A DNA stretch of 64,000 nucleotides from Cenococcum geophilum (taxonomy: Eukaryota), in the NCBI GenBank assembly GCA_050273025.1, contig CP158635.1, positions 930,001-994,000 of the forward strand, given 5' to 3'. A program made the position numbers and the translations under genes. The notes below the pieces were generated by a model. That model saw nothing but the letters and a program-made list of their open reading frames with translations. It searched no databases and was not told where the DNA came from. Shown here piece after piece: positions 5,551 through 48,685 of the stretch (the stretch's first letter is position 1; every line of letters begins with the position of its first letter).

Positions 5551-7720
5551 GCTTATTACTAAAGCATATACCTAGGTCTCTATAGCCTACCCTAAAAAGA
5601 ATAAGACCTGCAAGATTATTGGTAACCGTTACTACTAGCCTAAAATGGTTATAGATATTAACCGTTACGTACAGAACTGTAATAACTGCTGTAGGTTTAC
5701 GATTCTATAAGATAAGACCCTAGAACTATTAAAACCTCTCCTAATACCTAACCGCCCCTAGCAGTATATCTCTATAGACTTTTATAAGCTACCTACGGAC
5801 CGCAACGGATATAATATGGTTATAATTCTAGTTAACCGCTTTAGCAAGCGCCTGTTTTTAATTCCCTATTATAAGAATATTAATACTAAGAAGGCGGCCT
5901 AACTATATATCTACTATATCTACCGCATTTATAGACTATTAGATACTATAGTATCCGACTATAGTCTATAATTTATATCGGCCTTCTAAAACGAGTTTAC
6001 CTAGATCCTAGGTATTAGGCTAAAGCTCTCCATAGTATACTACCCCTAGATAAATAGCTAGACGGAGATTATAAATTAATATTTGGATTAGAGACTCCGG
6101 CCTTTTATTAACTACTTTTAGGATAACTAGGGCGAACTGCTACCCCTAATAAACTATGCCCAGGTAATTCTACCCTATAACTCTACGGGATTTGCACCTA
6201 TCTAACTAGAAATGGAGTATTTACCCTAAATAAGCTTTAACTAGGATAGACCAGAAGGACCACAGACTGTACGCAAGAAGCTATCTTATAAGAAAGCCCA
6301 GCAGTACGCTAAGCGCTTAAAGGAAGCCTAGATAGTAGCCCGTATAAATCTAGAAAAGGCCTAAAAATTAATAGTATAATAGGTAAATAAGTATAGGCGC
6401 GAACCCGACTTTACCGTAGGCGATATAGTTTGGGTTATAATAAAGAACTAAAAGACGGAACGGCCTAGCCGTAAGCTAGACTATTAGATAGCGGGGCCGT
6501 ACAAGGTCCTTAAGAAGATAGGTAACTTATATAAAGTAAAGCTCCTAGATTTAATTAAGGTTTATTCTATTTTCTTATTAGATAAGCTATAGAAAGCTAT
6601 AAATAACCTATTACCCGGATAAAAGAACGAACCTCCCCTGCCGATTTAAGTTAATAGCGACGATAAATAGGAAATTAAAGAAGTACTAGCCTGTAAACTA
6701 GTAAGGAAAACGCTAAAGTACTACGTTAGTTAGAAAGGCTATAACTTAGACCCTACCTAGTACCCTATATAGAACTTTATTAGCAGTCCCTATAAGCTTT
6801 AAAAATTCTATAACTATTACCCTAATAAACTAGGACTCCTAAAGTACCCAGATAAGTAGATAGAGTGCTAGTATAGTAAAGATAATAGGCTACTAGAAGA
6901 ATATAAAGATAAAAACGCCCTATAGAAGTAATATAGATATATAAAGCCTAAGGGCAGGCTTTACTAAAGGGGGGGGGGTAATGTTACGGCACTGGTAGAA
7001 CTTGGCAGAACTTTATATAGGCAAGTTGCCATAGATTGCCGCATATTGCGGTCACGTGACGCGAAGATCTTATAAAACATTGAGTGGCGCTACTCTTCTT
7101 CTCCTTTCCTTTCCCTAGCTTTAGATTCTTGTTTATAGACAATCCAATTATATAGGCTTGCGCGTCCCTCTTACTATACTTATACTTCGATTGTAATAAA
7201 GCCTTATAGCAGGAACTACGGTAGACTTATTAATAGGCCGGGTATATAGGTAAACAAGAAGTTAACAACGTAATAATAACTAGTGGAGTAGTTGCCTAAT
7301 AGATTAACTCTAATTATATTCTAAGATTTACTACAAAGGAGAGAACTATCTAGGTAGGGACTATGGTCCTTTAAATACACAACTATACTCCTAAGAAATC
7401 CCCTTTATACGTAAGGTACGTATACTTTATCTACTCTATTATAGATTATATAGATCCTATAGATTATATGGATTACGTTATATAACCTTAGTTACTATTC
7501 CTCGTTATATAGCTTTATCGGCTCCATTTTAGACCATACTTAAATTAACCAACTAGCTTCTTCCGTCTCTTCTCTAAGTAGTTATAATATTATACTTAAA
7601 GCGTCCGTAATACCATCTCCCTCCTCTTTATCTTTATCCTTAAAGATCTTAAATATCTTTAAGTTATTTACTAAAGGTATAATATCCGTCTAATTAATTT
7701 AGTTAATATTTTAACTTATT

Positions 7721-8360
7721 ATACCTAAAGCTCCTTCTTCTTCGTCTATAGCTTATTAGTCTCGTACTATCGCTATAATATTATCTCTTAGTGAGATTAT
7801 ACTATCTCTATATTCTCGTTATTTAAAAGAGGGGTTAGTTTATATTACGTTAGCGAGTCCATCTTCGTAATAACCGTCCTCTTACTTAGAGTGCATTAAA
7901 GTAAATATTTATTCGTCCTATAACGTTCGCTCTGTCTCTAATGCTAAATATACGCAACCTATTACTTTTAATAGTTGTCTAGTTCCTTAATTAATTTATT
8001 TTAGGGTCTTATATTTAATCTACTACTACGCGGCTAGATAATAAACTGTCTATTACTCTAGCGGAACTTTATTGTTCTTATAACGCTAAATAAAAGGCTG
8101 CTAAAGCTTAGCAAAGGGCTCTTAATTCTTATCTTACTGCGTTCGCTTAGTTAATCCATCTTAAAAAGGTTTATAAGAAGGTTTGTTTTAAAGAGTAGAA
8201 ACTTATAGAATAAGGTTTATAGGAACTTGGCGATAAAAGAACGGATTCTCTTCTAATAGAGAAGGAAATAGATCTAAGTAGTTTAGTAACTACTCTTCTT
8301 AGGTCCCCCTTAGGTGACTCGTTCTTTAGTAATTCTTTTTTATTAATACTACCTAACCTA
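7721..8360 (+). pseudogene. Antisense accessory gene of element C: Zn(II)2Cys6-like motif plus coiled coil (RIPed)
   Basis: De-RIPed MPKAP...CSRCSKEGLVCIALASPSSRQPSSCSEC.KANIRSSCDVRS, a probable intron, then RL.RLEKV..K...KE.KL.EQGL.EL. Homologous stretches occur in E and F. The end coordinate is approximate. Confidence 0.65.
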
Positions 8361-11300
8361 ATTTCTTCTAATACTCCTATACCTTTCTTATAGCGTTCTT
8401 TAAATTCTCTAGTAGCTTTTAGGTAGTCTTATTATAGCCTATTTACTTAACTTTATACTATATTTTATTATTAACGTTCTTATAACTAACAATCTTTAAA
8501 ACTTACTATTTGTCTTCCTCTTATCCTCTATATATGTCTACTTTATAAATAGGTGGCTTAATATTCCCGTATACTAGCTCTAGTATTATAATATACTATA
8601 TAGGGTAGATCCTTATCTTAGCTAGTAGGTTTAACTTAAATATAACCAGTAAAATCCTCTAAATAATTTCGAAAGGCCTTAGTCTAACATAGTCTAACAT
8701 CTTACTTAGTCGTTAACTCTTAAAATTTTTATATAGTAGCCACACTTTATCTCCCTCCTTAAGATCTAGTCCCTTAGATCTCTTAGCATTATAGTACTTT
8801 TTTATTCTTTTTTATACTTTCTTTACTGATTCTATAAGGTCTACATAAAGATTTATTAGTGTCTTTATTTTTTCTTTAACTATACTACTTGTTTTCTTCG
8901 CTTACCGTAGTAATAACGATATTCTTAGCTTATATCCATAATTTGCCTTAAATAGTAATGTGCCTATTCCTTCCTATGGTGTTACATTATATATAAACTA
9001 TATAATTAGTAATAGTAATACCCAATTATTCTATGCATAATTGATATAATGTCTTAGATACTATTCTAGCGTCTAATTTAATCTTTCCGTTTAACCATCT
9101 GTCTATAGATAATATGCGGTAAAAGTTACTGCTTAAACTCCTTACTTTACTAAGAACACTTCCTAAAATATTACTATAAATTTTAGATCTCTGTCTAATA
9201 TAATCTTACTTAGTACTCTATATCTTACGAACACTTCTTTAATATAGATTCTAGTAATATCTTCCGCTAAGATTTCTTTTATATATACTATAAAGTATCC
9301 CCACTTTATAAGCTTGTCTACTATTACTAAAATTACGTTATAATCTTGTCCGGTAATAGAGTCTCTTAACTTTAGTAACTTAATAATAAAGTCTTATAAT
9401 ATAACCTCCCATAGTCTCTCTGGTATTTTAATAGGTTGTAGCCCTCTATATGGCTTATGCCTTATTAGTTTATTCCTTTAGCAATCTAAACACTCTTTTA
9501 TCACTTTTCTTGCGATATTTCAGATTCTATTAATAATATATTCTTCCTAAAGTCTTAATACTAAGCCTATTGCTCCATTATGTCCTTAAGTTATTCCCCT
9601 ATAGAAATCTTCCATAAAATGCTCTGCTATGCTTCTTAGGATATACTTCACTTCTCAATTTTCGTATATATCCATTTATAGATCTTCTAGCTATGCTTTT
9701 AGAATTCTTTATACCTAAAAGCTTTCTAGTATCTTGTAAACTCTTTCTAGTTCGTTATCCTCTTAAGTTACTACTAGTTTAGGGTAATTATATCTAATTA
9801 ATCCATCCTTATCTCTACGTAGTATTACTCCTAATAGTTTCTCGTTATTCTATAGTTTAGCCCTTCTGCTAAGTGCGTCTGCTCTTATATTCTTAGTTCC
9901 CTTAGTATACTAAATCTTAAAATAGTATTCTATAAGTATCTCTGCCTATCTAACCTATCTTTAATTAAGTTCTTTTATTATTAGGAACCCCGTTAGGTTT
10001 TTATAATCCATCTTAACTATAAATGGTTTCTCTACGCCTTATAAAAATGCTCTCTATTTCTTAAGTGCTGCAACTATACCTAATAACTTTTTATTATAAA
10101 CGTTATAGTTTAACTCTAGTGGTATTATCTTTCTACTATAGTATGCTACTAAATGCCATGCGTCCTTATACTTCTGTAGCAAATATACTCCTAGTGCGTA
10201 GTTTAATGCGTCCGTTTCCACAACCGTGTCTAGTCCTAGTTGGTAGATCTTAAGGATTGGCTCCTAGGTAAATAACTCCTTAAGTTCTTTAAATAACTTT
10301 CTTTATTTATCTCCCTATACCTATAGTTCCTCTTTCTTTATAAGCCTGGTAAATGGTTTAATATTCTTTAACCATTATGCTATAAACCTTCTGTAGTAGT
10401 TACAAAACCCTAAGAATAACCTTAACTATATTACATTCTCTAGTTCTTACCAACTTACTATAGCTTTAATCTTCTTTATGTCTATACTAATATAACCTAG
10501 TTTAATAATAAATCTAACGAAATCAGTCTTCCTTATAAAGAACTTGTATTTCTTAATTGCTACTAGCATCTGTTCTTCTTATAGTCTCTTTAAAACCCAT
10601 TTAATATGTTCTTTATATTCTTCCTTAGTTATTAAGTAGATAATAATATCGTTAAGGTATACTATAACAAACTTATTAAGGTATTCTTCTAACATACTAT
10701 TAATTCTTTTCTAAAATATTATAGGTGCATTTGTTAGTCCGAATTGCATAACTAATAGTTTATATAGTCCTTCTCTTAACCTAAAGGCTGCCTTCCATTT
10801 GTCACCTTCCTTAATTCTAATTTAATAGTACGCCTATCTTAGATCTATCTTCGTAAAGATTTGCGCGTTACCTATCCAATTTTAGATTTCGCTAATTAAG
10901 GGTAAAGGATACCTATCCTTCCTAGTAATGCTATTTAACTGCTTATAGTTAATGCATAACCTAAGTTTTCCATTCTTCTTTGGTACGAATAATACTAGGT
11001 AACCTACTAATGACTATAATAGTCTAATATATCCCTTTCGTAAGTTCTCTTAGACAAACTCTTTTAGTACGCTTGCCTCCTCTTAAGTAAGCTTATAGGT
11101 TGGAAAGAACCTTAGACTTATTCCTAGTTTTAACTCTATCTTATAATCCTATACTGTATAATCTGCCAGCTTTTTACTTTCCGGTAACTATAGTTTCTTA
11201 CTATACTTATAGTATCTCTTTAGTATATAACTTAAGCTTTACTTAGTCTCTTTATATATCGCTCTAACTTAGTATTATACTAACTTAGTTTACTGTCGCA

Positions 11301-12688
11301 TTTTACGGCGTTAAATATCTCTAATATTGACCTAACCTGTAATCCAATTAATCCTTAGGTTGTATTCCTGTAACTAAGGCATGCCTAATACTGCCTTATC
11401 CCGTCCTAATAGTAGGATATTAAAAGATATCTCAATTCGTCTTCCTTTAATAGTTATCTAAATTAGTCCTATTTTAAGATTAATAATCCCTCTTCTATAG
11501 GCTATTAGATCTCCTAAAATTGTAACTAATAGGTAAGATTGTTTCTTCTATCTATAAGATAATCCTATTCTCTTTACTACTACTAATAAGATATAGTTCC
11601 GCGTTGCTCCACTATCTATTAGCGCCTTAAACTGCTAATCTTGCCATTTAACTTATAAATTTAGGTGTTGTTCTTAAATTCCTTTAAGGGTCTAAGGCTC
11701 TACTACTAGCTTTCTCTAGTCCCGTAGGCCTCTACTTTTCCTAACTATTAGCTACTTAATTCTATTACATTTAGCTTACTCTTTAGCTAATGCCTAGTTC
11801 GCTTTTTATCTTTAATATACTATAGATACGTATTCTCTAGGCATTCCCACCACTATTATCTATCTAAGTATTCTTCCGTAAGGAATCTTCCTAGCTAAAG
11901 TATTAAATTTCCTTTCTTTTAGACTTCTACTAGATACCATCTATGCATATATTTGGCATTCCTATACTATCGCTTATTTATTATCTAGTATATCCTTATA
12001 GGGTATTTCTAATTCTTTTTCTTTAGATTCTTATACATCTTGTATATATTATCTATATATGCAATCCATAATAGTATATAGTGTGCTAGGTGCTTTAGGT
12101 TAACTCTTAACTTGTCTTTATTTTTAAGTTTAAACCTTTATTATGCTAATCTAAACGTTATAACTTTATTCGCAGGTACTAAGATATGTCTTTCGCTTCT
12201 CTAGTCCTCTAATTATTTCTTTAGATTCTTTAATATTATAATTAAGGCTCCTTTAATATAAGTTATGGCCTTCTCTATAATTAGGTGGTTTTAGATAACT
12301 CTTTTATCTAACCACATATAGAAATCTTCCTACTTATTATTATGCCTTTACCTATACTACTTTTAGTACAGCTGCTAGAGTATATACGGCTTATCCGTAA
12401 GGAAGTATCTTCTTATTACTACGTTATAACAGCCCTTTATATGTCGTTCTTTAAACCTAATAGGGATCCCTAAATCCTCTTTATCTTCCAGTTTAATAAG
12501 CCACTTAGCTCTTAGTATGCCTGCCCTAGGCCTATTAGTAATTCTTCGTATTAGTACTCTATCCCTTATATGTCCTAATATACTAGATCTCTTATCTAGT
12601 TTCTGTTCTTACTATACGATAATCCTTTATCTAAATTCTTCTATAGTTTCTCTTAGTTTATATCTTATGCTTAGATCCTTAAAGTCTT

Positions 12689-14736
12689 TATCAGCAAAAT
12701 ATTGTCCCTTGTAAATGACCTCAGCTACTAAAAGTTGGCGTCGTTGGCGGGCTATTAAGGGCATTAACTAACTTGACAAACCAGCCTATATCGAGTTTAT
12801 TTGACACGCAGCCTGCGCGCAGCCTGCGCATAGCCTACGTAACCTACGCAACCTACGCAACCTGCGCAACCTATATAACTTATAATTTTAGATAATAAAG
12901 GCTACTTTAAAGCCGTTTATAAAGCTATTAAGATAAATTGTATACACTTCTTTATATAATCTATTATGTCTACATTTACTACCTGTCTGCATTGTCTACC
13001 TATCTACATTACCTACCTATCTGCATTACCTACCTATCTGCATTACCTACCTGTCTATATCGCCTACCTGTCTATATTATCTACCTATCTATATTATCTA
13101 CCTGTCTATATTACCTACCTGTCTGCATTGCCTACCTATCTGCATTATCTACCTGTCTGCATTGTCTACCTATTTACATCGCCTACCTATCTGCATTGTC
13201 TACCGGTTTATATCGTCTACCTATCTATATTACCTACCTGTCTGCATTACCTACCTATCTGCATCGCCTACCTGTCTGCATTACCTACCTGTTTATATCT
13301 GCCTATAGTGTCTAATTTAATTTAGGGGAGAGGTCGGCCCGATTAAAGGCTCTGATTGATTTAAATTGTTCTCCATGGCCGTTCGCTGGCTGTATATTCG
13401 AACAGTGGTTATCTAGGGTGCCTCCCTAGGAGGCCTTAATTCGATTCGATTTGGTAATAGGCTCTAGATTAATTCAATTGATCGATTAAATCGTTTGTAG
13501 TGTTCGCTGGCTAGTTGTTTAAACGGTTGTTGTCTGGTTCTGGTAACGGTCGTCTGCTAGTTCTAGCGACAGTCGTCTGGTTCTAGCGACGGTCATCTGG
13601 TTTTGGCGACGGTTATCTAGTTCTGGCGACGGTTGTCTAGTTCTGGTAATGGTCCTCTCTTACCTACCTACCTGCCTGCCTACCTACTTGTCTGCCTACC
13701 TACTTATTTATCTATCTACCTACCTGCCCACCTACCTGCCTACCTGCCTGCGTTAGTATCTGGTTTAATTTAGGGGAGGAGTTGGCCTGATTAAAGGCTC
13801 TTATTGATTCGAATCGTTTTCTATGGCCGTTCGCTAGCTATACATTTAAACGGTAGTTGTCTGGGGTGCCTCCCTAGGAAGTCTTGATTTGATTTAGTAA
13901 TAGGCCAATATTAAAGCTCTGGTTCAATTTAATCGATTAATTAATTAAATTGTTTGTGGTATTTGCTAGCTAGTTATTTAAACAGTTATTGTCTGGTTCT
14001 AGCGACGGTTATCTAGTCCTAGCGACGGTCGTTTAGTTCTGGCGACGGTTATCTAGTTCTGGTAACGGTCGTCTGGTTCTGGCAACAGTTGTCTAGTTCT
14101 GGCGATGGTCCTTTACTAGCTGCCGTTCCAGTGCCTCCTAAGGTAGGGAGGATATAAGGAAGGGTAAAAAATAAGGTGGCTGTAAAGGGGGTAACTTGGC
14201 AGAGGTACGTGCGGGGACCTAATATAGAGCTTTATGTAGAGCCTCCGTATATAAAGCTTCGCGTAGAGCCTCGTGCAGAGCCTCTGTACGTAGAGCTTCG
14301 TGTAGAGCTTTGTGTAGAGCTTCGTGCAGAGCCTCGTGCAGAGCCTCGTATAGAGCCTCGTGTAGAGCCTCTGTCGCAGAGCTTTATGTAGAGCTTTGTG
14401 TAGAGCCTCTTAAGTATATAACTTAAAAATATTATATTATATTACCTTAATTGTATATTAAGGAATATATAAGTTAGTTAACTGCGTATTATTTAACTTT
14501 TAAATATGTTAAGTTGGTTAATTATAGGTTAATTACAGGTCAATTGCGTGTTATTTAACTTTTAAATATATTAAGTTGGTCAACTGCGTGTCATTTAACT
14601 TTTAAATGTGTCAAGTTGGTCAACTGCGTGTTATTTAACTTTTTGAATGTGTTAAGTTGGTCAACTGCATGTTAATTACGCGAAACGCGCTTAACAAAGT
14701 CGACTTAAAACCCAGCCTGCGAATATTTTCCCGATG
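12689..14736. mobile_element. Non-autonomous TIR element D1 built from tandem-repeat modules
   Basis: Ends (C>T)ATC(G>A)GCAAAATAT ... ATATTTTCCCGATG. It interrupts C gag relative to E and has the same module order as D2. Confidence 0.8.
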
Positions 14737-15409
14737 ACTTCTTACTTCTTAATCTTAGTATTAACATTTCGATTTTTAAGCCGAACACTATATTCTCCTA
14801 GTAGGTCTTCTAGGTCTATATATCTATCTCCTAGTCTAATTGCTATTTATACTATAGATTCTCTAATCTATAAAGAAGCCTCTTACCTCTTATTTATGGG
14901 TGTCCTTATCCGTACTCTAAATTCTTAGCCCTGTAGAATTCTTAATCCTAAGCTTACTTCTATCTTAAGCTTTACTCCAGCCTTAGTTTAACTAGGCTTA
15001 CTTAGTGTTCTTATCTCGTCTTAAGAGTCTTAAATCTCACTTATCTTATCTTAAGAATCTTATATTTCTAAAAAACTTCGTCCTAAGCTTATTTGTATAT
15101 CACTAAACTAAGCTATTACTCTGCTCTATTAGTTATCGTCCGTTATAGGTCCTTAAGCTTACCTTATCTTATTTTAAGAATCTTGGTCGTCTTATATCTC
15201 ATCCTAAGAATCTTAAGCCTTTGGCCTTTTGCCTTTATTAAGTGCCGAAGTGGTTTACTATTCTACTTCTCTTATATCTTATAAAGTAATAGATATCGTA
15301 TCTAGTGAGGTCTTAATCCCTACTAATATTCCCTATTCTATAGTGGAATTATCCTCTATCTCTTATATAACATCTCTAAGGTCTACTCGCTCCCAGTAAG
15401 CGGCCTTTA

Positions 15410-21370: not shown

Positions 21371-23689
21371 CTTTATCGCCTTATCGTTATAGAATATTTC
21401 GTCTACGTTAAATTTATCGTTCTTAATATCCGATCTACGAACTGGTTCGTTGGTTCCTCTATATCCTATAGGTACTAGCTCTTATAGCTAATAGCTTACG
21501 CTATACTTAGCGTCCTTATAAATTTAGTATGCGTTATTATAATAAAACACAAAACTTTTAATTAAACATTCTTTTATTTCTTATAGCATATTATCGTTCC
21601 TCTATACGTGTATATTATCTACTAGTCTTATCCCTTTTACTATATAGTAACTTTACCCACTTCTATAGTCTCTAATATAATAACCCTATTTTCCGCAATT
21701 TATATAAGCTCCCTCTTTAAACCATTTTTCTTGCTATAGAGTCCGCCTAAATATCTTCTGCTACTAAGATCCCTAGTTTAGCCTCTATTCCTTAGACCTT
21801 TAATTACTTAATCCTTATCCTTTAGGTTTTTATAATTTCTTATTCTATCTCCTAGATTCTTTAGTACCACTTAGGTCTATTAGCTCTACGCTATACTATA
21901 GTTTTTAACTTAGCTTTAGTTATTGCGTGCTTTACGCCTTATATAACTATAAAACTCTATCCTGGCCTCTCTTAGCCTATTCCCTTTAGTAGATCCGATT
22001 ATTAATCTTAATTACTTAATCTATTAGTTCCTGTAGGGTATCCGCATCTTCTATTAGGATAATTACGTCCTAGACTTTAGCCTTAAGTCCTTACTTATAC
22101 TATACTATAAGCGCCCTATTATTTTACTTTACTTATGTTGCTAATGTCTGGAACTATATTATATACTTAATTGCTAAGGTTCGTTGCGTAATGTTTTAGA
22201 GTTTTCTTTCCGCCACAGTTGTTGCCTTTAGGTCTTTAAATATTTATATAAGTCGTTCTATAAATCTATTCTAGCTTAAGAATATAAACCATACTTCTTA
22301 ATTAGTAGTTATTATACTATTTACTTATATCTCTATAAGGTAAGGCTCGAACTATTTAAGTGCTCTTTCTATTAAGAACAGTCCTGTATATGCTATTTAA
22401 TCTATAGGTATTACCAGCTTTACTCCCTCCTATGCTACCTTAAAGTGCATTTATATAAGGAATCCTTTAAGCTTTAATCTCTCTCCTAAGTATCTTTTAA
22501 TTAATAGTAACTTAACCTTTACTGTGCCTATCTCGTTAATTCTATTTTCTAACGTCGCATTATTTTCTATTAACTGGTTAACTATCTCTTATAGCTGTCC
22601 GACTGTTATAGGTTACTATAAGTTAGTATCTGCTATACTAGTGTCGTTACTTAACCTTAAAGTAGTTGCCGCCGTCAATAGCGTTATAGTGGCTGCTTTT
22701 GGTGGCATGTTATTTAACTTTATTAATACTATAACCTTAGTAGTGAATGTATAACGAAGCCTTATAGCAGGAACTACGGTGGACTTATTAATAGGCCGGG
22801 TATATAGGTAAATAAGAAGTTAATAACGTAATAATAACTAGTGGAGTGGTTGCCTAATAGATTAACTCTAATTATATTCTGAGATTTATTACGAAGGAGA
22901 GAACTATCTAGGTAGGGACTGTGGTCCTTTAAATACACAACCGTACTCCTAAGAAATCCCCTTTATACGTAAGGTACATGTGCTCTATTTGCTCTATTAT
23001 AGATTATATAGATCCTATAGATTATATAGATTACGTTATGTGACCTTAGTTACCATTCCTCGTCACATAGCTCTATCGGCTCTATCCTGGACCGTGCTTA
23101 AATTAACTAACTAGCTTCTTCCGTCTCTTCTCTAAGTAGTCGTAATACTGTACTTAAAGCGTCCATAACATCGATTAACTAAGTCGCTAATACTAACCTA
23201 CTTTCTCTATACTATTGTAAGCTATTATTCTTCCTTTATAAGTTACTTCTAAATCTTCTTATCCTATTAGCGTACCTCCTCTTAGTATTATAGTTGTTTG
23301 CGCTCCTCTTAAAGCTCTATTACTTACTCGATTTTTAAAAGGCTAAAGAATATAGCCTTATAATTAGTCTCTGCACGTAGTTTATTAAAGAGAGGCTTGC
23401 TATAAGTTCTCTTCTTCTTTTTATTCCTAAACGCCTTTTAGAGGCCCCTATTTTCTAAGCAGAGGAGGGCAATATTAGTGATAAGCTTAAGAACCGTATT
23501 TTTAAAGCCTTTTGTCCTGCGGCTCTATAACCTTATTAACCACGTCTCGTAAAAGCTTGTGCACCTTCCTCTATTCGCTTACTAAGAGGGCTAAGGTATT
23601 TAAGTTCCTTAATAAAGGCTAAGAGGTTTTACCTTACTTTTATTAGGTCTTAATAGCGCTAAGAACAACCTCTAGATTAAGGGGATTAA

Positions 23690-31590: not shown

Positions 31591-32093
31591 GTTAGATTAC
31601 GTTAAACTAGAACTATTTAAATTTTTAGCTAAATTTTTAGAAGTTATATATAAACTTAAATTACTAGTAAAGATAAAGATCTACCCTATATAGTATATTA
31701 TAATGCTAAAGCTAGCGTATAAAAATATAGAGCTATTAGTTTATAAAGTAAATACGTATAAAGAATAAAAGAAAGATAGATAGTAGGTTTTAAAGATTAT
31801 TAATTATAAGGATATTAATAATAAAATATAATATAAAGTAAAGTAGATAGGCTATAATAAGACTACCTAGAAACTACTATAAAATCTAAAGAACTCTATA
31901 AAAAAGGTATAGAAGTATTAAAAGAGAATAGGTTAAGTAATATTAAAAAGGAGCTAAAGATAAAGGGATTAGTTAAAGGTAATAGACGAGCTAGATTATT
32001 TAAGGGATCTACTACTAGTATATAAGTTATTTCCGCCTCTTCTTAATTAGAATTCTTTTTAGCCTCCTTAGCCTTAAGTTTAAAGAGACCTTA

Positions 32094-33629
32094 CATCGGC
32101 AAAATATGGTACCCTACTAATGGCCTCAATGGCTGGTGGTTGACGCAATTGGCGCGCAGTTGAGGGCATTTGGCAACTCGACCGACTAGCCTATGTCGTG
32201 TTTTTTTGACACGTAGCCTGCGCGCAACCTGCCAGCAATCTGCGCATTTAGCAACCATAATTATATTTACCTCTTTTATACTAATAGCATATTTTAAATA
32301 AATAAAAGCTACTTTAAAGCTATTTATAAGGCTAGCAAAATAAATATTATTATTTTAGATAATTTAATATAATATAGCGATGGTTCTCTTCTACCTATCT
32401 ACCTATTGACTTACCTACCTGCCTATCTACCTACCTGCCTGTATTGCCTACCTGTCTGCATTGCCTACCGTCTGCATCGCCTACCTGTTTGCATCTGCCT
32501 ACCTGTCTATATCTGCCTACCCGTCAGCATCTCCCTGTTTGTGCCTACCTGTCTGTGCTACCTTGATTCGATCGATCGATCGAATCGTTTAGTGTTCGCT
32601 GGCTAGTCGTTGTCGTCTGGTTCTGGCGACGGTCGTCTGGCTCTAGCGACGGTCGTCTGGCTCTAGCGACGGTCGTCTGTCTCTGGCGACAGTCGTCTGG
32701 CGACAGTCGTCTGGCTCTGGCGACGGTCGTCTGGTTCTAGCGATAGTCATCTAGTTCTAGCAACGGTCCTCTGCTGGCTGCCGTTCTAGTGCCTCCCTAG
32801 GTAGGGAGGATGTAAGGAAGGAAGGGTAAAAAATAAGGCGGCTACATAGGCAGAGACACGTGTAGAGGCTATCGGGAATATAGCGGGGACCCGATGCAGA
32901 GCTTCGTGTAGAGCCTCCGTATGCAGAGCTTCGCGCAGAGCCTTGTGTAGAGCCTCTGTACGTAGAGCTTCGTGCAGAGCTTCGTGCAGAGCTTCGTGCA
33001 GAGCTTCGTGCAGAGCCTCCGTACGCAGAGCTTCGCGCAGAGCCTCGTGCAGAGCCTCGTGCAGAGCCTCGTGCAGAGCCTCGTGCAGAGCCTCGTGCAG
33101 AGCCTCTGTACGTAGAGCTTCGTGTAGAGCTTCGTGTAGAGCTTCGTGTAGAGCTTCGTGTAGAGCTTCGTGTAGAGCTTCGTGTAGAGCTTTATGTAGA
33201 GCTTCGTGTAGAGCTTTGTGTAGAGCCTTGTGCAGAGCCTTGTGTAAAGCCTCTAAGTAATAAGACTATATAAGATTATATAAGATTGCGTAATTGGCAT
33301 ATAACTTTACCTTAGTTGCATGTTAAGGAATATATAGTTAGCTTTTAAAGTCGTCAAATAGGTTAACTGTGTGTTATTTAACTTTTAAATATGTTAAATA
33401 GGTCAACTGCGTGTTAAGGAATATATAGTTAGCTTTTAAAGTTGTTAATTAGGTCAACTGCGTGTTATTTAACTTTTAAATATGTTAAGTTGGTCAATGG
33501 CGTATTAAGTTGGTTAATTACGTGTTAAGTTGGTTAATTCGTGTCAAGTTGGTCAATTTGCATGTCAATTACGCGAAACGCGCTAAACAAAGTCTACTTG
33601 AATCTCATCCTGCGAATATTTTCCCGATG
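32094..33629. mobile_element. Non-autonomous TIR element D2 (same family as D1)
   Basis: 14-bp TIR CATCGGCAAAATAT / ATATTTTCCCGATG with one mismatch, flanked by TA on both sides. Removing it plus one TA restores the host frame L-I-K-(Q)-G-L. Confidence 0.85.
32895..33255. repeat. 12-bp minisatellite (GCAGAGCTTCGT/GCAGAGCCTCGT) inside D2; homologue at ~14225-14410 in D1
   Basis: Directly visible tandem units; explains the spurious RASC-repeat ORF. Confidence 0.9.
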
Positions 33630-34075
33630 TACTTTATAAGATATAGCTCTTTTAAGCATACCTTTTTATATACCTTTATAAGACGGCTTAGTTAAGTATA
33701 AGTATTAAGTTAAGCCTTTAGGGCCTAAGACGCTTTATTAGAATAATATTAAACCTTAATAAGAGCTTTAGCTAGCTTACCCTTTAGTCTTTTAGCCGCT
33801 ATTAATACGCGAGACCTTATAATAGATTAAATAAGGAACTAGATAGTTATATTAAATTATAAAATATATATACTTGGTATTAGAGACGGATTAAATATTA
33901 TAAGAGGATTATATATTCGCTTGCGTATACTTAGTATAAAAAAAGGTTAACAACTAGATAGAGCCGTAATTATAATATATGTCACAGTACGTGCGGACTG
34001 TCAAGGTATGATGTACGAGGTGACTGTATATGATTGACAAACGATGTCGTGTGAGGATCTATGTAGGAGGTAAGG

Positions 34076-36976
34076 TGGTATTAACTGCCCGGCTGATCCT
34101 CGGTCAGCCGAAAAATCACGTGTTTAGCCAGCCACCTGGGTCAGATTCGAGGATCTCCTCAGCGCTACTAGCGCTAAGCTGAGGAGATTCGCGTATCTAG
34201 GGCCACCTGCTGATTAAGCCGCTGATTGACGCCGACTGTAGGGTAATTAGGGCCATTGAGGCCCCAAGTATATATAAAAAAGTCCTCCCTACCTATCCTT
34301 AATCGCGGTAGTATGTCTGCTATTATACCTACTATATAAGATGGCGCTGACTAACCGCGTAGAGATTAATATCGCTAATAATGCCGAATTACGCGCTAAC
34401 GCGCAGTATGTCCTTGCCCTTATGTGTGCCGTAAGGCCTAAGAATATATCTTTAACGTACAATCCAAAGCAGAAGGAGTTTAAGGTAATACCCCCCCCCT
34501 CTCCTAAAAGTATCGTGGCCCGTGGCTAACGCGTTGTCTAGCTTTAGGCCTTCTATAAACGGAAGTAGTACTATAACAGCAATACCATTACGGAGGATAA
34601 GCTACTTCTTTTTCTCGTTAAGGAGGTTATAAGCCAGCCCTTAAAAGGGAAGAGCTGTAAAGCCGATATTAACGTACCCTAAGAGGAAACGTGGCTCTCG
34701 TGGCAGTTAGTTCGCGGCTATATTACCGCTCTAACGGACCTTTATTGGATGCAGAAAGCTATAGGAATAAATAGCCACCCGTCTCCGCGGGAGGACAGCA
34801 TTAGGGAGTACCTAAAGACGTTATAGCGGAGGGACGCGTAGCGCGAGAAAGAGCAGTTCGCTAATAAGGGTAGAGATACCCTCCTTAACGGCTATACCAA
34901 GGACGAGTTCCAGAGCGTCTACCATAAGCTCTAAGCCAGGGGCGCCGCCTTGTCCCCAGAGTGCTACTTCCGCACGCTTGTTGATATCCTGCTAGGCCAC
35001 TATATACTTACCCGCGGCGGCGATAAACGCTCTACTAAGATCTCAGATCTATTTACCTTTAAGTTTAAGGGTAAAGGCCCTACGCGCTGTATGCCCTTAA
35101 TATTCACTACACGCGCAGGTAAGTAGAACCAGCATAGCCGCCTTAAGACTATTGGGGCCCTACGGAACAGGAAGCCGCTTATTTATATACTTAGCGGGCT
35201 AGCTTTCTATCTCCTATATTACTAGGATCTTAGTATGGAGCCGTTTCCGGACTTTAGTAAGCGCTTAGTATAGTACAATATACGCCTAATTAAGGGCGGT
35301 AGGGACTACGAGGCGGCCCTCTTATATAACTTGCAGCGAGATTAGGTCACAAAGGCCTTTTAGTATGTTGGCGTTTTCTTAGAAAAGAAGACGTATATTA
35401 GGCGGAGCGCCGGCGCTAAGACGGCGGAGCTAAAGGGGGTTAGTAAGGACCAGATTTGGCGCGCTAGGAGGTAGAACTAAGAGTAAATAGTAGGCTATTA
35501 CTTAAACTCTCTCCTATAAGAGTTTATAAGGTTAATAGTAGGGCACCTTTTATAGATAGGCTGCTTTAAAATCCGCCGTGCGGGTATTACGCCGCCTAAC
35601 GTACTGCTATTAATAATATGGCCTAAACTAGACAAATGGAAGGGCTGTTTTGGCCTATAGCTATACTAGATTAATAACCTTGCCGCTATAGGGGTTACGA
35701 ACCTTCTCTTTTACCTCCGCGAGGTCATTTTATAGGACTTAGTAGCCCTCCGTAAGATGTTCCTAAGCTATCTAGTATAGAGCTACTCTGTCTTCTAGTA
35801 TAAGGCGTATAAGGCCTTTATGTAGGATCTAGAGCCCTACCTACAGGAAGAGGGGAGCCTAAATTAGCTGTTAATTCTCTACTAGGCTATACCACTCCTT
35901 GCTAACTAACTAAAGGCTCTACGCGCCAAATATAAGCAGACAGCTAGTAAGGTTAAGGGCTTATTAGACTATTTAGATAAGTCCTAGCAGGCCTAGTCTT
36001 TATAGCTTTAATTACTAACGTCCGGAGGCCTTACATTTCGACTAGAAGCCCCTTTGGCTGTAGCTACGGCAGTAGCTGCAGCATGGCCTTAGGGCCGGTC
36101 TACTAACCCCCTACGTCCGCTTATAGAAGCGGCCCCTCTAGCTCTATCTGTTACGGGATTTAATAGATATACGTCCGCCTAGGTAAGCGCTATAGGCTCT
36201 CCTTCCCGTATAGCTTCGCTACCGCCGCTGCCGTAATAGCCGTAGCCGTAGCCGCAGCTAGAGCCCGGGTCTGGGTCTCTACCTATATACTATATAAGCC
36301 GCGCGGTGAACTCTGTACGGGCCCTTTGGCGTAAGTGGACTAAAGGGCTAAGAGGTAATCCTTTTATAGTAGCGCTAGATTCTAAATAGGGTAGTAGATG
36401 GCGGGCTGGCTAGTAAAAGGAGGTTTAATAGTACTCCCTACGGCTCGAGGTTATTAAGGAGATTAAGCGGGTCGCGTAGGTCTAGAAGGTCAGCGAGGAA
36501 GCGGCTATATAGTAGGTTAATCTACGGCAGGAGCAGATGTAGTGCTCACTAGATTAGCTTTGTAAACGGCTTCGAGCGGGTAGAAAGGCTTTAAAATAGT
36601 TATATATATGACTTCTAATAAGATACTAAGAGGTCCTCTATTAAAACCTTTGTCTATAGCCCCCTAGGGGCTCATTTTGGTGCCGTATAAGTTTGATGGG
36701 GTGCTTTAGGGTGGTGGCGCGCAACTTAAAACGCGAATATCTTCATTAACCCACGGCCGATTCTTACCATTCTAGTGCGAGTAGAAAGCGCTCAGCAGGC
36801 TCTACGCATAGCGCTCGACGGGTGTTGAGAGTATGGCGTTGCTGGCGATTAAAAATCGACTGTGGATATGGGGTAATATCCACAGTCGCTGAACGCACGG
36901 ACCTCCTCGCCCGCGTAATCGTGACTTAGCCGCTGATTCAGCCATATAAATGTACCTGTGGATATACTATTGGTAT
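34076..36976 (+). mobile_element. CryptonF tyrosine-recombinase DNA transposon
   Basis: 6-bp direct repeat TGGTAT at 34076-34081 and 36971-36976, no TIR, and a single recombinase gene inside. Confidence 0.8.
34341..36599 (+). pseudogene. Crypton tyrosine recombinase (Ndc10-II-like domain plus C-terminal GCR1_C), RIP stops, one intron ~34485-34547
   Basis: EDKLLLFL..EV, ADKGRDTLLDGY, HYMLTRGGD.R, GKQNQHGR, KKT(H)IGRSAGAKTAEL.GVSEDQI.RAGRWN....GCYL, and the GCR1_C motif SRAV.SVRALWREWTEGL...LD.KWG.RWR. Exon 2 (34548-36599) shows no net frameshift. Confidence 0.88.
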
Positions 36977-37894
36977 ATATACACGTCGCTTAGGGGTCAG
37001 GTCCGTGCTCGTGTTATAACAACACTGAATCATAACAACGTGTTAGGTTAGTGCCGTGACAATATATACTAACTTCTTCTCTATATAGTAAGAATAAGAT
37101 AGTATAACTTTACTAAGTAAAAGAATAAATATTACTAGCTAATTATAATGGTTAGACGTAGAAGATCTAATAGAAGGTATTAGAAATAATAAAGGTTATT
37201 AAATTAAAAATGGGAATACTATACCTCTAATAAACAACTTAGAGATAGGAGATATCTTTAAGGATAAAGATAAAGAGGAGGGGGATAGTGTTACGGACCT
37301 TATATTAATAGTAGTACAACTATTAAGAAGATATATAAATAGGTTAATTAAGATAGTATAAAAGACACTAGAACTAATTAAGCTATAAAATAAGGGGTAA
37401 CTAAGTTATGTAGCTAGTTATATTATAAGTTTAAAATGTAGAAATATAGGAATATAGGAATATAATATACCAATATACTAATATACCGACGTACTTAGTA
37501 TATTTCTTAGGCGCAGTATTAAATACTTAAAGGACTATAGTCCCTACCTAGATAGTTCTCTTCTTTATAGTAAATCTTAGAATATAATTAGAGTTAATCT
37601 ATTAGGCAACTACTCTACTAATTATTATTATATTATTAACTTCTTATTTACCTATATGCCTAGCCTATTAATAAGTCTACCGTAGTTTCTACTATAAGGC
37701 TTTATTATATTAAAAGGCAATATTTTTAGCAACTAATATAGAGGACTATAATATAATTCTTTTACTATAAAGAGGCCTTAAGGCGATTACCTAGTAGCTT
37801 ATTAGCTAGAACGTCCTAAACTAATTCTAAGTTATAAAGGAAATAGTAGAAGAAGGTAAGGGAGTAAATAGGTACCCTTTAAAGGCTTTATAGT

Positions 37895-40800
37895 TGTTAC
37901 GGACGCTTTAAATACGATGTTATAACTACTTAGAGAGGAGTTAGAAGAAGCTAGTTGGTTAATATAGGCACGGTCTAGAATAGAGCCGATAGAGCTATAT
38001 GATAAGGAATAGTAACTGAGGTTATATAACGTTGTACGTAGTATACGCAGTGTATAAAGGGAACGTACGTATAACACGTATAACACGTACATTACGTATA
38101 AAGGGGATTTCTCAGGAGTATGGTTGTGTATTTAAAGGACCACAGTCCCTACCTAGATAGTTCTCTCCTTTATAGTAATTCTTAAAATATAATTGGAGTT
38201 AATCTATTAGGCAACTACTCTACCAGTTATTATTACATTGTTAGCTTTAATTTGCATCACCTATATACCTAGCCCATTAATAAGCCCACCGTAGTACTTG
38301 CTACAAGGTTCCGTTATACAATTACTACCTAGTTATAGTATTAAATACAGAAAGCCGAACAACATGCCACCAAAAGCAGCCACTATAACGCCATTAACGG
38401 CGGCAACTACTTTAAGATTAGGAGGCGATACTAGTATAGTAGATACTAACTCGCAGCAACCTATAACGGTTGGACAACTATAAGAGATAGTTGACTAACT
38501 AATGACTAATAATACGGCGCTGAAAGAAAGGGTTAATAGGATAGGAGTAGCGAAGATCAAGTTACTATTAATTAAGAGATACTTAGGAGAGAGATTAAAG
38601 CTTAAGGGATTTCTTATATAAATGCACTTTAAAGTCACATAAGAAGGGGTAAAGCTACTAACACCTATAGATTGAATAGTATACGCAGGACTATTCCTAT
38701 TAGGAAGGGTACTTAAGTAGTTTAAGCCTTACCTTATAAAGATACAGGTAAATAGGATAACGACTACTAATTAAGAGGTGCGATTTATATTCTTAAGCTA
38801 GGAAGGGTTTACGGAGCGACTTATATAAATGTTTGGAGACCTAAAGGCAGTAACCACAGCAGAAAGAAAACTCTAAGACATTACGCAATAAACCTTAGCA
38901 ATTAAGTATATAACGCAGTTCTAGACGTTAGCTATATAAGTAGAGTAGAATAATAAGGCGCTTATAGCATAATATAAGCAAGGACTTAAGGCTAAAGTCT
39001 AGGACGCGATTATCCTAATAGAAGATGCGGATACCCTATAGGAGTTAATAGATTAAGCGATTAAGATTAACAATTGGATCTACTAAAGGGAATAGGCTAA
39101 GAAAGGCTAGGATAGGGTTCTATAGTTGTATAAGGCGTAGAGTATATAATAACTAAAGCTAAGTTAGAAACTATGGTATAGCGTAGAGCTAATAGACCTA
39201 AGTGGTACTAAAGCTATAAGAGATAGAGTAAGAAATTATGGAAACCTAGAGGATAAGGATTAAGTAATTAAAGGTCTAAGGAGTAGAGGCTAAACTAGGG
39301 ATCTTAATAGCAGAAGATGTTTAGGTAGACTCTATAGCAAGAAAGATAGTTTAAAGAAAGAGCTTATATAAATTACGGGAAATAAGGTTATTACGTTAAA
39401 GACTATAGAAGTGGGTAGAGTTACTATATAGTAAAAGGGATAAGACTAGTAGACAATATACATATATAGAGGGATGATAATATGCTACGAGGAATAAAAG
39501 AATGTTTAATTAAAAGTTTTGCGTTTTATTATAATAACGCATGCCGAATTTATAAGGACGCTAAGTATAGCGTAAGCTATTAGCTATAGGAGCTATACTT
39601 AGTAGAATATAGAGGAACTAATAAACCAGTTTATAAATCGGACATTAAGGATAATAAATTTAATATAGGCGAAATATTCCGTAACAATAAGGTAATAGAG
39701 GCGGCTTATTAGGAGTATATAGACCTCAGAAATGTTATATAAGAGGTAGAGGATAATTCTACTATAGAATAGGGAACATTAGTAGGGATTAAGACCCTAC
39801 TAGATACGATATCTATTACTTTATAAGATATAAGAGAAGTAGAATAGCGAACCACTTTGGCACTCGATAAAGGCAAAAGGCTAAAGGCTTAAGATTCTTA
39901 AGATAAGATAAGGTAAGCTTAAGGACCTATAACAGACAATAACTGATAGAGCAGAGCAATAGCTTAGTTTAATAATATATAAATAAGCTTAGGACAAAGT
40001 TTCCTAAAGATATAAGACTCTTAAGACGAGATAAGAACACCTAAGCCTAGTTAGACTAAGGCTAGAGCTAAGCTTAAGATAGAAGTAAGCTTAGGATTAA
40101 GAATCCTATAGAACTAAGATTTTAAGATATAAATAAGGACTATTAACGAGATTAAGAAGCAGGAAGACTTTAGAGATCTACTCGTAAGACGTAAAAAGAA
40201 AGAAACCATAGAAGAATTTAGATAAAGAATTATTATATAGCAAGAATAGAAACTAGATAAGAGATCTAGTATACTAAGTCGTATAAGGGATAGAGCACCT
40301 GTATAAAGAATTACTAATAGGCCTAGAGTAGGCATACTAAGAACTAAGTGGCTTACTAAACTAGAACAAGAAGAGGATCTAGGGATTCCTACTAGATTTA
40401 AAAAACGACATATAAAGGGCTATTACGACATAGTAATAAAAAGATACTTCCTTACAAACAAGCCGTATATACTCTAGTAGCTGTATTAAAAGTGGTATAG
40501 ATAATAATATAATAATAAGTAGGAAGATTTCTATATATAGTTAGACGAAAGAGTTATTTAAGACCACCTAATTATAGAGAAGGCTATAAGTTATATTAAA
40601 GGAGCCTTAATTATAACGTTAAAAGATCTAAAGGAGTAATTAGAGGACTAAAGGAGTGAAAGGCAAATCTTAGTACCTGCGAATAAAGTTGTAACGCTTA
40701 GATTAATATAAGAGAGGTTTAAACTTAAGGATAAAGATAAGCTAAGAGTTAACCTAAGATACTAAGCATATTATATATTAGCATAGATTGCGTATATAGA

Positions 40801-43800: not shown

Positions 43801-45657
43801 GAATAGTATCTAAAACATTATATTAATTATACACAGAATAATTAGGTATCGCTATTACCAGTTATATAGTTTATATATAATACAACACCATAGGAAGAAA
43901 TAGGCATATTACTATTTAAGGCAAATTATAGATATAAGCTAAGAATATCATTATTACTATAGTAAGCGAAGAAAATAAGTAGTATAGCTAAAGAGAGAAT
44001 AAAGACGTTAATAAATCTTTATATAGACCTTATGGAATTAGTAAAGAAAGTATAAGAGAGAATAAAAAAGTACTATAATGCTAAGAGATCTAAGGGACTG
44101 GATCTTAAGGAGGGAGATAAAGTATGGCTACTATATAAAATTTTTAAGAGTTAACAACTAAGTAAGAAATTAGACTATATTAGACTAGGACCTTTTAAAA
44201 TTAAGTAAAGGATTTTACCGGTTATATTTAAGTTAAACCTACTAGCTAAAATAAAGATTTACCCTATATAGCATATTGTAATGCTAGAGCTAGTATATGG
44301 AAATATTAAGCCACTAGTTTATAAAGTAGATACGTATAAAGGATAGAAAGAAGACAAATAGTAAGTTTTAAAGATTATTAACTATAAGGATATTAAGAAC
44401 GAAATATAGTATAAGGTTAAGTGGATAGGCTATAATAAGACTACCTAGAAACTATTAGAGAATTTAAAAAACGTTATAGGAAAGGTATAGGAGTATCGGA
44501 AGAGATTAGGTTAGGTAGTATTAATAAAGAAGGATTATTAAAGAATAAGTTACCTAAGGGGGACCTAAGAAGAGCAGTTGCCGAACTACTTAGATCTATT
44601 TCCTTCTTAGATAGAAGAGAATCTATTCTTTTATTACTAAGTTCCTACAGACCCTATTTTATAAGCTTCTACTCCTTAGAATAAACCTTCTTATAAACCT
44701 TCTTAAGATAAAGTAACTAAGTAGACGCCGCGATACGGGCCTTAAGAGCCTTCTACTCTATACTATAAGAACGTTCTAACTTAGTAAGAGCTTAAAATAG
44801 TTTACTATCTAGCTGCGTAGCAGTAGATTAAATATAAGACCCTAAAACAAATTAATTAGGGAACTAGACAACTATTAAGAGTAATAGGTTACGTATATTT
44901 AGTATTAAAGATAAAGCGAACGTCATAGGATAAATAAATATTTGCTTTAGTATACTCTAAGTAAAAGGACGGTTGTCGCGAAGATAGACTCGCCAACGCT
45001 ATATAGACTAACCCCTCTTTTAAATAACAAGAACACAGAGACGGTTTAATCTCGCTAAGAGATAATATTGCAGTAATAGTATAAGTATAACGTTGCGCCT
45101 GCGAAAAGGAAGGAGTTTTAGGTATAATAAGTAACAATATTAACTAAATTAATTAAACGGACATTATACCTCTAGTAAATAACTTAGAGATATTTAAAAT
45201 CTTTAAGGACGAAGATAAAGAGGAAGGAGATAGTATTACGGACGCTTTAAGTACAATGTTATAACTACTTAGAAAGGAGTTAGAAGAAGCTAGTTAGTTA
45301 ATATAGGCACGGTCCAGAATGGAGCCGATAGAGCTATATAACGAGGAATAGTAACTAAGGTTATATAACGTTGTACGCAGTATACGCAGTGTATAAAGGG
45401 AATGTACGTACAATATATATAACACGTACATTACGTATAAAGGGGATTTCTTAGGAGTACAGTTGTGTATTTAAAGGACCACAGTCCCTACCTAGATAGT
45501 TCTCTCCTTTATAGTAATTCTTAGAATATAATTGGAGTTAATCTATTAGGCAACCACTCCACTAGTTATTATTACGTTATTAGCTTTAATTTGCATTACC
45601 TATATACCTAGCCCATTAACGAGCCTACCGTAGTACCTGCTATAAGGTTCCGTTACA
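37895..45657 (+). mobile_element. Ty3/Gypsy chromovirus E (C family), full length, no nested insertion, RIPed
   Basis: 424-bp LTRs at 37895-38318 and 45234-45657; TSD ATAGT at 37890-37894 and 45658-45662. gag MPPKAAT at 38364, protease ALIDSG ~41225, then RT, RNase H, integrase, chromodomain ~44350-44500 and a PPT before the 3' LTR. Confidence 0.95.
44550..45125 (-). pseudogene. Antisense Zn(II)2Cys6-like/coiled-coil accessory gene of element E
   Basis: ORF 44889-45137 reads LCSCYLKEGLVY...FYLEYTK...SYDV, with TAT/TAC at the Cys positions; aligns with the C and F copies. Confidence 0.65.
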
Positions 45658-48431: not shown

Positions 48432-48685
48432 GTTGGAGGGTAAAATAATTTAATAGCGTGGTGAGGATTTGTGAAACTCTTGCATGCTGGTCTTGAGCCT
48501 CATTGACGTTGCTCAGAAAGTCATCAGGCTTGGCGCGGCGGTTCACCGACGCGTATGAGCTTGTGCCTGGAGCTCTCCGTCAACTACCAACCTCTACAGC
48601 TGTTTGCGCAGTCTTCCGCTTCGCAATCCCCCTCTCTGCTTTTCTATACCTCTCTTTGGCTATTGTTGCATAGCTCAAGCCCAAA
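48432..48685. promoter_or_regulatory. 254-bp bidirectional promoter with GGAGCT (candidate Rpn4-type proteasome element) at 48569-48574
   Basis: Divergent ATGs at 48431 and 48686; motif assignment relies on recalled literature for filamentous ascomycetes. Confidence 0.5.

Follow-up and report, generated by a model that had tools for sequence, protein, structure and literature searches.

A putative spliced antisense gene for a six-cysteine, coiled-coil protein in RIP-degraded Ty3/gypsy retrotransposons of Cenococcum geophilum

The antisense gene and its host element

The 64,000-nucleotide stretch of the Cenococcum geophilum genome analysed here (contig CP158635.1, positions 930,001 to 994,000 of the forward strand; "the window" denotes this whole stretch) contains copies of Ty3/gypsy retrotransposons, designated C, E and F, that have been degraded by repeat-induced point mutation (RIP). 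In all three window copies that reach the region between the end of pol and the polypurine tract and 3′ long terminal repeat (LTR), this region carries a gene on the strand opposite to gag-pol. Judging from the sequence comparisons described below, the segment 7721-8393 (plus strand) of copy C is very probably a RIP-killed copy of a genuine, conserved and spliced accessory gene of the element. An earlier sequence-only reading of the window had placed an antisense open reading frame (ORF) between a chromodomain-like pol end and the polypurine tract in these three copies; the ORF is present as described, and its end in copy C, given as 8360, needed correction, the stop codon being located at 8391-8393.

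In copy C, exon 1 (7721-7949, plus strand) opens with an ATA codon representing a RIPed ATG and includes three RIP-derived stops. It is followed by an intron of 55 nt in phase 1 (7950-8004, plus strand), with a RIP-destroyed donor and a TAG acceptor, and by exon 2 (8005-8393, plus strand), which covers the coiled-coil part and a tail ending in ...SSNTPIPFL and includes seven further RIP-derived stops, so that the spliced reading comprises 205 codons with 10 stops. Exon 2 of this copy aligns to the un-RIPed database proteins P0180, P0178 and P0176, and the helical segment expected downstream of the donor is present in the window. The gene of copy E (44474-45125, minus strand) shows the same arrangement, with exon 1 at 45125-44897, the intron at 44896-44842 and exon 2 at 44841-44474; it has 198 codons and 7 stops, and its exon 1 is stop-free. 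Copy F had been described as split into three pieces, and two insertions indeed divide it. The first piece (37062-37180, minus strand) extends from the start of exon 1 to just past the third site of the cysteine motif discussed below and is cut by an insertion at 33980-37061; the second (33633-33974, minus strand) runs from the remainder of exon 1, which carries a frameshift of 1 nt, through the intron into exon 2; and the third (31896-32093, minus strand) contains the last part of exon 2 with a stop at 31898-31896, an inverted-repeat element at about 32094-33632 lying before it. Copy F is more distant, with about 65-70% DNA identity to C and E in the antisense-gene region, and in an alignment of that region six of the seven length differences between F and C/E are multiples of three. 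All three window copies are dead, with 10, 7 and more stops, RIP-destroyed donors and, in the case of F, two insertions.

Element C spans 7190-12688 on the minus strand. Its degraded gag-pol (8368-12688, minus strand), with protease, reverse transcriptase, RNase H, integrase and a chromodomain-like end, converges on the antisense gene, such that the order is pol end, antisense gene, purine tract and LTR. The Pfam matches on the minus-strand frame follow the order protease, reverse transcriptase, RNase H, integrase (RVT_1, 8.2e-24; RT_RNaseH_2, 5e-22; Integrase_H2C2, 3.8e-4), and this domain order together with the flanking LTRs identifies the host element as Ty3/gypsy, whereas the plus-strand frames of the window gave no Pfam match. 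The 3′ LTR of element C (7199-7610, minus strand) recurs in self-BLAST at 22757-23168 (91.5%) and 38308-37897 (82%), and adjoins a polypurine tract at 7613-7641, read by eye on the minus strand as AAGGATAAAGATAAAGAGGAGGGAGATGG. Over 5526 alignment columns, C shares 83% identity with element E (40164-45659, plus strand). As to the chromodomain, Pfam returned no Chromo match in the window or in the related locus L059, and a weak one (13.1 bits, E 0.096, cut-off 25.1) in the related locus L037 only. By eye, the pol end in the window reads ..YKVKxIGY..., with Trp codons that are now RIP stops.

The first 46 kb of the window are AT-rich (GC 0.27-0.46). In copies C and E the RIP indices are 1.58-1.61 for TpA/ApT and 0.35-0.41 for (CpA+TpG)/(ApC+GpT), compared to 0.88 and 1.17, respectively, in the un-RIPed genic part at 46.6-56 kb. 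The two elements differ by 751 transitions and 155 transversions. On the basis of this transition excess and of the indices, the element copies C and E were taken as RIP-affected.

Database relatives and intact reading frames

The dead copies of the window have numerous relatives. A profile built from exon 1 of copies E and C, run with HMMER against 1.84 billion representative proteins, matched 149 proteins at E<=1e-3, and for 50 of these E was 1e-10 or below. These matches are 48-233 residues in length, with no longer, domain-bearing cellular protein among them, and the ten that were looked up all originate from environmental assemblies. Many begin with MPK..., comparable to IPK in the window; column 1 of the alignment is M in 17 of 21 sequences and I in 4, followed by P and K in columns 2 and 3. 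Near-intact proteins were found by searches seeded with P0067, the least damaged match, and then with P0152, and these natural un-RIPed relatives were used in place of a de-RIPed consensus. P0152 (152 residues) starts with MPPKVSKRPS..., and P0170 (239 residues) represents the whole protein, to ...SDNTPVPFP; the two share 62% protein identity. Stop-free plus-strand ORFs of 138-239 residues exist among the relatives. Two other searches were negative: a word-based protein search with exon 2 of C, in which stops were replaced by X, yielded 132 candidates, none at E<=10, and no usable match came from the ESM Atlas when exon 1 of E, which is free of stops, served as the query.

One member of the family, the exon 2 ORF P0177, bears the database name "vacuolar-type H+-ATPase subunit I/STV1", which is probably a mis-annotation caused by coiled-coil similarity.

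The genomic surroundings were assessed in a set of loci consisting of the best 80 of 185 tblastn-confirmed relatives in one metagenome collection, with P0067 as the query (its own contig is absent from the set). Of the 87 exon-1 matches in these loci, 77 are accompanied by an antisense pol C-terminus that ends 550-811 nt downstream, and 8 of the remaining 10 have less than 1500 nt of contig left. Together with the 149 relatives, this bears out the claim of a conserved antisense gene linked to the element. Its slot, its strand and its conservation in most copies are those of an antisense additional ORF, and its carrier is one clade of ascomycete, chromovirus-like Ty3/gypsy retrotransposons, in which it constitutes a third gene.

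Ancestry of the six-cysteine motif

The sequence-only reading had reported six positions in exon 1 that are TGT/TGC or their RIP products TAT/TAC, with the spacing C-x2-C-x6-C-x13-C-x2-C-x8-C identical in the three copies. The pattern is there, in a largely eroded state. The motif of copy C (7811-7921, plus strand; codons TAT, TAT, TAT, TAC, TGC and TAT) now reads Y-x2-Y-x6-Y-x13-Y-x2-C-x8-Y, and that of copy E (minus strand, from 45035) reads C-x2-Y-x6-Y-x13-Y-x2-Y-x8-Y. Of the 18 site codons present in the window, 16 are thus TAT or TAC, and cysteine is encoded at only two, site 1 of E (TGT) and site 5 of C (TGC). The spacing is identical in C and E, and in F it is obtained only across the 1-nt frameshift between sites 3 and 4.

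When 32.9 kb of RIPed window DNA was simulated 200 times with a third-order Markov model, a flexible [YC] version of the pattern occurred with a mean of 0.69 per 32.9 kb (the probability of at least one being 0.50), and the version with exact spacing with a mean of 0.05 per 32.9 kb; outside C and E, the actual window shows the pattern only within a tandem repeat at 12971-13222. Because such a pattern is expected by chance, the motif could not carry the claim alone, and it is sequences from outside the window that do so.

All 149 relatives were aligned to the profile, with no selection, and the six sites were scored. Cysteine occurs 56, 51, 29, 37, 66 and 53 times at sites 1 to 6, and tyrosine 76, 89, 119, 90, 60 and 58 times, such that the two residues together account for 132/140, 140/144, 148/148, 127/130, 126/129 and 111/113 of the sequences, with almost no R or H. 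Columns 33, 50, 64 and 70, in turn, show mixtures of R, C, H and Y, as predicted for CGY codons. RIP takes TGY only to TAY, whereas it takes CGY to TGY, CAY or TAY; columns restricted to C and Y therefore indicate that the six sites were formerly cysteines. All six cysteines are present in un-RIPed relatives such as P0152 and P0170, where tyrosine at these sites would have spoken against a cysteine ancestry. The same rule is of practical use in RIPed genomes, in that C/Y-only columns point to an ancestral Cys and R/C/H/Y columns to an ancestral Arg.

Codon-level constraint

Constraint was measured as transversion diversity, i.e., purine/pyrimidine changes, which are not created by RIP, as a stand-in for the ratio of nonsynonymous to synonymous substitution rates. 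Besides C and E, 81 copies from the loci were aligned as DNA (83 in all), with copies of less than 800 nt left out. In exon 1 the diversity at codon positions 1, 2 and 3 is 0.076, 0.026 and 0.160, respectively (Kruskal-Wallis p 5.6e-9); in the intron it is 0.068, 0.083 and 0.073, with no periodicity (p 0.82); and in exon 2, with the frame shifted by one, it is 0.087, 0.081 and 0.172 (p 6.1e-5). In exon 1 position 2 is less variable than position 1 (p 0.0037), which fits coding on the plus strand, and in exon 2 the comparison of these two positions does not discriminate between the strands. Within 8201-8395 the plus-strand position 3 is the most variable (0.122, versus 0.071 in the phase of pol), and the pol phase dominates past 8396. 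The periodicity in aligned sequences, which shifts its frame across the intron, shows that the antisense gene has been under codon-level constraint, the absence of which had been named as a reason to abandon it.

The boundary with pol is less clear and tempers this picture. At each stop of the pol frame between 8460 and 8250, some of the relatives instead have a codon for W, Q or R, so that the pol stop at 8370-8368, and with it the overlap of the two genes, is given as a candidate.

The intron

Six uninterrupted ORFs (P0152, P0170, P0172, P0175, P0176 and P0178) span the exon junction and read ...SDAEW-S[RQ]V[QV]SAA... across it. In the window and in the genomic relatives, exon 1 ends with ...AA[AG] T, followed by GT[GA]CGC. 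Joining T|GT...AG|GG gives the junction codon T+GG, i.e., Trp, and the junction in the ORFs thus matches the proposed splice. The donor now reads AAAT|ATACGC in C and ATACGT in E, both RIP-destroyed. A TAAC-type branch site lies about 10 nt before the TAG (about 7992-7995 in C), after which the sequence continues with GG TCT.... Across the 83 aligned copies, 26 have G and 57 have A as the first base of the intron, 82 have T as the second, and the acceptor has A in all 83 and G in 80, i.e., both splice dinucleotides, GT and AG, have been kept except where RIP has altered them. The position given earlier for a RIPed donor and its intron is thereby confirmed to the nucleotide, and the open spliced frame that the reading demanded exists in the six ORFs.

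The segment between the exons is retained in all 80 related loci. For 50 of 50 exon pairs the spacer is 55 nt (43 pairs), 130 nt (4), 61 nt (2) or 127 nt (1), all of which are 1 mod 3 and give a +1 frame shift; three further locus copies read through with gaps. In P0179, encoded on a contig of 120,785 bp, the exon 2 ORF begins inside the intron, as would be expected of an unspliced genomic copy. The intronless ORFs, in turn, are located on contigs of 921-1423 bp with the Joint Genome Institute (JGI) as their source, and we infer from these sequences that the short contigs with joined exons derive from spliced mRNA. The GT...AG ends, the branch site, the absence of the segment from the intronless forms and the restored frame are, taken together, the features of a spliceosomal intron.

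Two points count against this account of splicing. Intronless DNA copies may also explain the joined ORFs, and the junction of P0067 (ECTFHVRS) is not given by the same splice sites. The available RNA data add nothing on either side. In four runs searched at 85% likeness, no joint at 7949/8005 was found, the cover of the gene being thin and coming from contigs and reads of relatives; the best run contained no more than 0.08 of the sampled words. Several contigs from the runs cross the intron unspliced (e.g., X1 record 2 at 7761-8059 and X3 record 22 at 7943-8051). This result is neither for nor against splicing, since sense-strand element RNA or DNA would look alike and the donors in the window are destroyed.

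In the subfamily with the 130-nt segment (loci L004 and L068), the segment is flanked by a direct repeat of about 10 nt, so P0067 may represent either a deletion or an alternative splice.

The predicted protein

The intact product, as read from the relatives, is a protein of about 200-205 residues. It has a basic, Ser-rich N-terminus (MPPK...), the six-cysteine motif and the splice-junction Trp, followed by a helix of about 100 residues, an acidic, Ser-rich linker and a conserved tail, ...SPLGGSFFGDP..LP...SSDTP[VI]PF. The AlphaFold2 (AF2) model of P0170, based on 29 sequences, shows a single helix at residues 98-200 with a predicted local distance difference test score (pLDDT) of 94-98. A model of two copies with zinc reached an ipSAE score (a measure of interface confidence) of 0.33 versus 0.02 for the best control, with a contact agreement of at least 63% and a partner pLDDT of at least 71; in the calibration, which was microbial and without ligands, 21 of 30 solved homodimers and none of 23 solved monomers attained the mark for pairing. 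The helix that had been proposed after the donor is thus recovered in the models, where it forms a homodimer, and the segment following the cysteines is predicted to be a dimerising coil. On the strength of the models, we consider the product to be a six-cysteine protein that is probably zinc-binding and probably a dimeric coiled coil.

The assignment of the motif to the Zn(II)2Cys6 family, put forward in the sequence-only reading, was not supported. The intact relatives have the six cysteines, and five of the six spacings lie within the range quoted for Zn2Cys6 clusters, with a loop of 13 residues that is one beyond the quoted x5-12. A number of observations weigh against membership. Pfam assigns no family to the protein. 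Its Zn_clus model (PF00172) matched P0152 with 13.6 bits (E 0.075, cut-off 21), with only model positions 18-36 of 39 aligned, the second half of the model being placed on the first C-x2-C-x6-C of the protein. P0067 scored 9.4 bits, and no Zn_clus match at E<=10 was obtained for the six-cysteine relative P0112, nor any in ten RIP-affected relatives. The best sequence match in the PDB was PPR1, with an insignificant E of 0.56 and the same half-alignment, and a PDB search with profile A4 returned only Mediator subunit 9 (E 0.088). Basic residues are typical between Cys2 and Cys3 of Gal4-type clusters; here the corresponding segment is AKEGLV or AEKKLV, i.e., not rich in K/R, and the loop between sites 3 and 4 has 13 residues. 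The cysteine part has a pLDDT of 50-70 in both AF2 models (P0170, and P0152 with 150 sequences), and Foldseek found no match in the PDB at E<=0.001, with a single row at E 9.1 for the second model. Finally, the contacts in the modelled dimer (115-157 and 132-146) are antiparallel, unlike the short parallel coil of Gal4. Pro-Ser precedes both halves of the motif, which suggests, from the sequence, a doubled half-cluster that arose by internal duplication. The protein is thus at best "like" a small Gal4-type factor, and a Zn2Cys6 family label would be tentative. For its parts taken separately, we lean towards zinc binding by the cysteines, and we regard a Gal4-like DNA-binding regulator as doubtful.

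Comparison with known systems

The closest known counterpart is brtn, carried by Boty-like elements in Botrytis and Sclerotinia (Zhao et al. 2011, Virology 417:248), which is an antisense gene between pol and the 3′ LTR (PMC7264820, PMC8365987, PMC4227169, PMC5987419). The slot and orientation of the gene described here are therefore already in print for Boty brtn, as far as the passages describing it go, and the statement in the sequence-only reading that canonical elements of this class encode only gag and pol had overlooked this precedent (PMC7264820, PMC8365987). In the review literature, Boty is grouped with plant elements of the aORF-3R type, the functions of the ORFs being described as unknown (PMC7264820); brtn is reported to be missing from the current B05.10 annotation (PMC8365987), and a Monilinia transcript is reported to match truncated Pol plus BRTN (PMC5987419), as would be expected of a tail-to-tail pair. 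Compared by description only, the two genes share a fungal Ty3/gypsy host, a pol that ends in a chromodomain or, here, a chromodomain-like part, the same slot and antisense strand and an unknown function. They differ in that the passages citing brtn make no mention of cysteines, a coiled coil or an intron. No match named BRTN appeared in the protein searches seeded with P0067 and P0152, and searches of the full-text literature, which leave out subscription papers, yielded no account of a cysteine cluster or coiled coil in such a gene. If BRTN proves homologous, the present gene would be a member of a published gene family.

The plant aORF-3R genes (Grande, RIRE2, Retand and PvRetro13; PMC7264820) likewise occupy the same slot in the same orientation, are conserved across copies and have an unknown function. 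They belong to plant non-chromovirus lineages, and in this comparison, again made by description, the passages concerned do not describe six cysteines followed by a coil.

Gal4-type factors (PF00172; PPR1, PDB 1pyi) resemble the antisense gene product in their six cysteines, arranged in two C-x2-C-x6/8-C halves and followed by a dimer-forming helix. The antisense gene product differs from them in its 13-residue loop, in the lack of a basic stretch between Cys2 and Cys3 and in its helix of about 100 residues, modelled as antiparallel; it is also borne by a mobile element, is only about 205 residues long and lacks a Fungal_trans domain. A more remote parallel is provided by HBZ of human T-cell leukaemia virus type 1 (HTLV-1), a human deltaretrovirus, which is encoded antisense near the 3′ LTR, has a spliced form and is a dimerising basic leucine zipper (bZIP) protein. 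Here the analogy is one of layout only, as HBZ has a bZIP instead of a cysteine cluster.

Alternative explanations and possible roles

Several other explanations of the conserved region were considered. The Tyr/Cys pattern might have arisen by chance in TA-rich RIPed DNA and be common to the three copies by descent; the simulated frequency and the two cysteine codons among the 18 window sites would suit this, yet it is refuted by the C/Y-only columns of the 149 relatives, by the six cysteines of the intact ones and by the codon periodicity, and is scarcely credible. Alternatively, there may be no antisense gene at all, the conservation stemming from a minus-strand pol that extends further at its C-terminus or from a cis-acting sequence upstream of the polypurine tract. 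The sense codons found at the stops between 8460 and 8250 imply that pol might read past the chromodomain, and in C one minus-strand frame stays free of stops over about 85 codons. This explanation is nevertheless highly improbable in view of the plus-strand variability of position 3 in 8201-8395, the low variability of position 2 in exon 1, the one-step phase shift across 55 nt with GT...AG ends and the stop-free plus-strand ORFs of the relatives. It is also very unlikely, if less extremely so, that the gene is a fragment of a host gene captured once by the ancestor of the family and useless to the element. LTR elements do capture host sequence, and the function of the product is not known; however, open frames and six cysteines have been kept in divergent subfamilies (C/E versus F, and P0152 versus P0170, at the identities given above), the position relative to pol is constant, and no longer cellular protein occurs among the profile matches.

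A much stronger competitor leaves the gene itself intact and concerns the nature of its cysteines, which could form another zinc module (e.g., two C-x2-C...C knuckles, or a ribbon-like C4 with two spare cysteines). The binding target would then be RNA or another protein, for instance Gag, integrase or a chromatin or silencing factor of the host, and the long helix would provide the scaffold. We give this alternative somewhat less than an even chance. The half-model matches to Zn_clus and PPR1, the Pro-Ser before both halves, the matchless Foldseek search and the antiparallel contacts all speak for it, whereas Gal4-type factors are built in just this way, with a twofold C-x2-C-x6/8-C and then a coiled coil, and no better-matching family emerged from the Pfam and PDB searches.

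Returning to the reading of the locus as a spliced antisense accessory gene, its product might serve the element as a dimeric factor that binds nucleic acid or chromatin. The cysteines would bind zinc, either as two ions in a binuclear cluster or in two separate knuckles, and the antisense mRNA would have its start within the 3′ LTR or adjacent to it. The intron would survive retrotransposition, because it is an intron on the antisense transcript only. In the most specific form of this proposal, the clade would encode a dimeric zinc-cluster factor of its own, translated from a spliced antisense mRNA initiated at the 3′ LTR, and the factor would bind the LTR or nearby chromatin and thereby set the element's own transcription or blunt host silencing. 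We consider this specific form unlikely; if it is true, HBZ of HTLV-1 would have a fungal counterpart, and a relative of the Gal4-type cluster would be known from a transposon for the first time. The DNA binding, the transcription from the 3′ LTR and the regulatory, targeting or anti-silencing role advanced in the sequence-only reading are accordingly retained as inference only.

Fungal LTR elements are usually annotated with gag-pol only, and gene finders skip the antisense gene owing to its RIP stops and, in intact copies, to its being short, spliced and antisense. The gene is conserved across many copies and subfamilies and looks expressed. A sizeable group of fungal Gypsy elements would thus possess a third gene, and its protein, probably dimeric and zinc-binding, may regulate the element or the way in which it interacts with the host genome.

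Other features of the window

The insertion that cuts copy F at 33980-37061 is 3.08 kb in length, with TGTCAC...GTGACA ends, a 5-bp TATAT duplication and a GC content of about 0.46, above that of its surroundings. It is of the LTR type and is possibly younger or less RIPed. The second insertion in F, 32094-33632, has inverted ends (TACATCGGGAAAATAT... and ...ATATTTTGCCGATGTA), a TA duplication and many short tandem repeats, and looks like a non-autonomous inverted-repeat DNA transposon. It is one of two related repeat-rich segments in the window, the other being 12690-14740.

The repeat block is adjoined by un-RIPed host genes at 46618-64000. These include genes for an FF-domain protein (46618-48153, minus strand), a proteasome subunit (49018-49488, plus strand) and a CN hydrolase (61006-62085, minus strand), as well as a fragment of a Fungal_trans transcription factor (63113-64000, minus strand).

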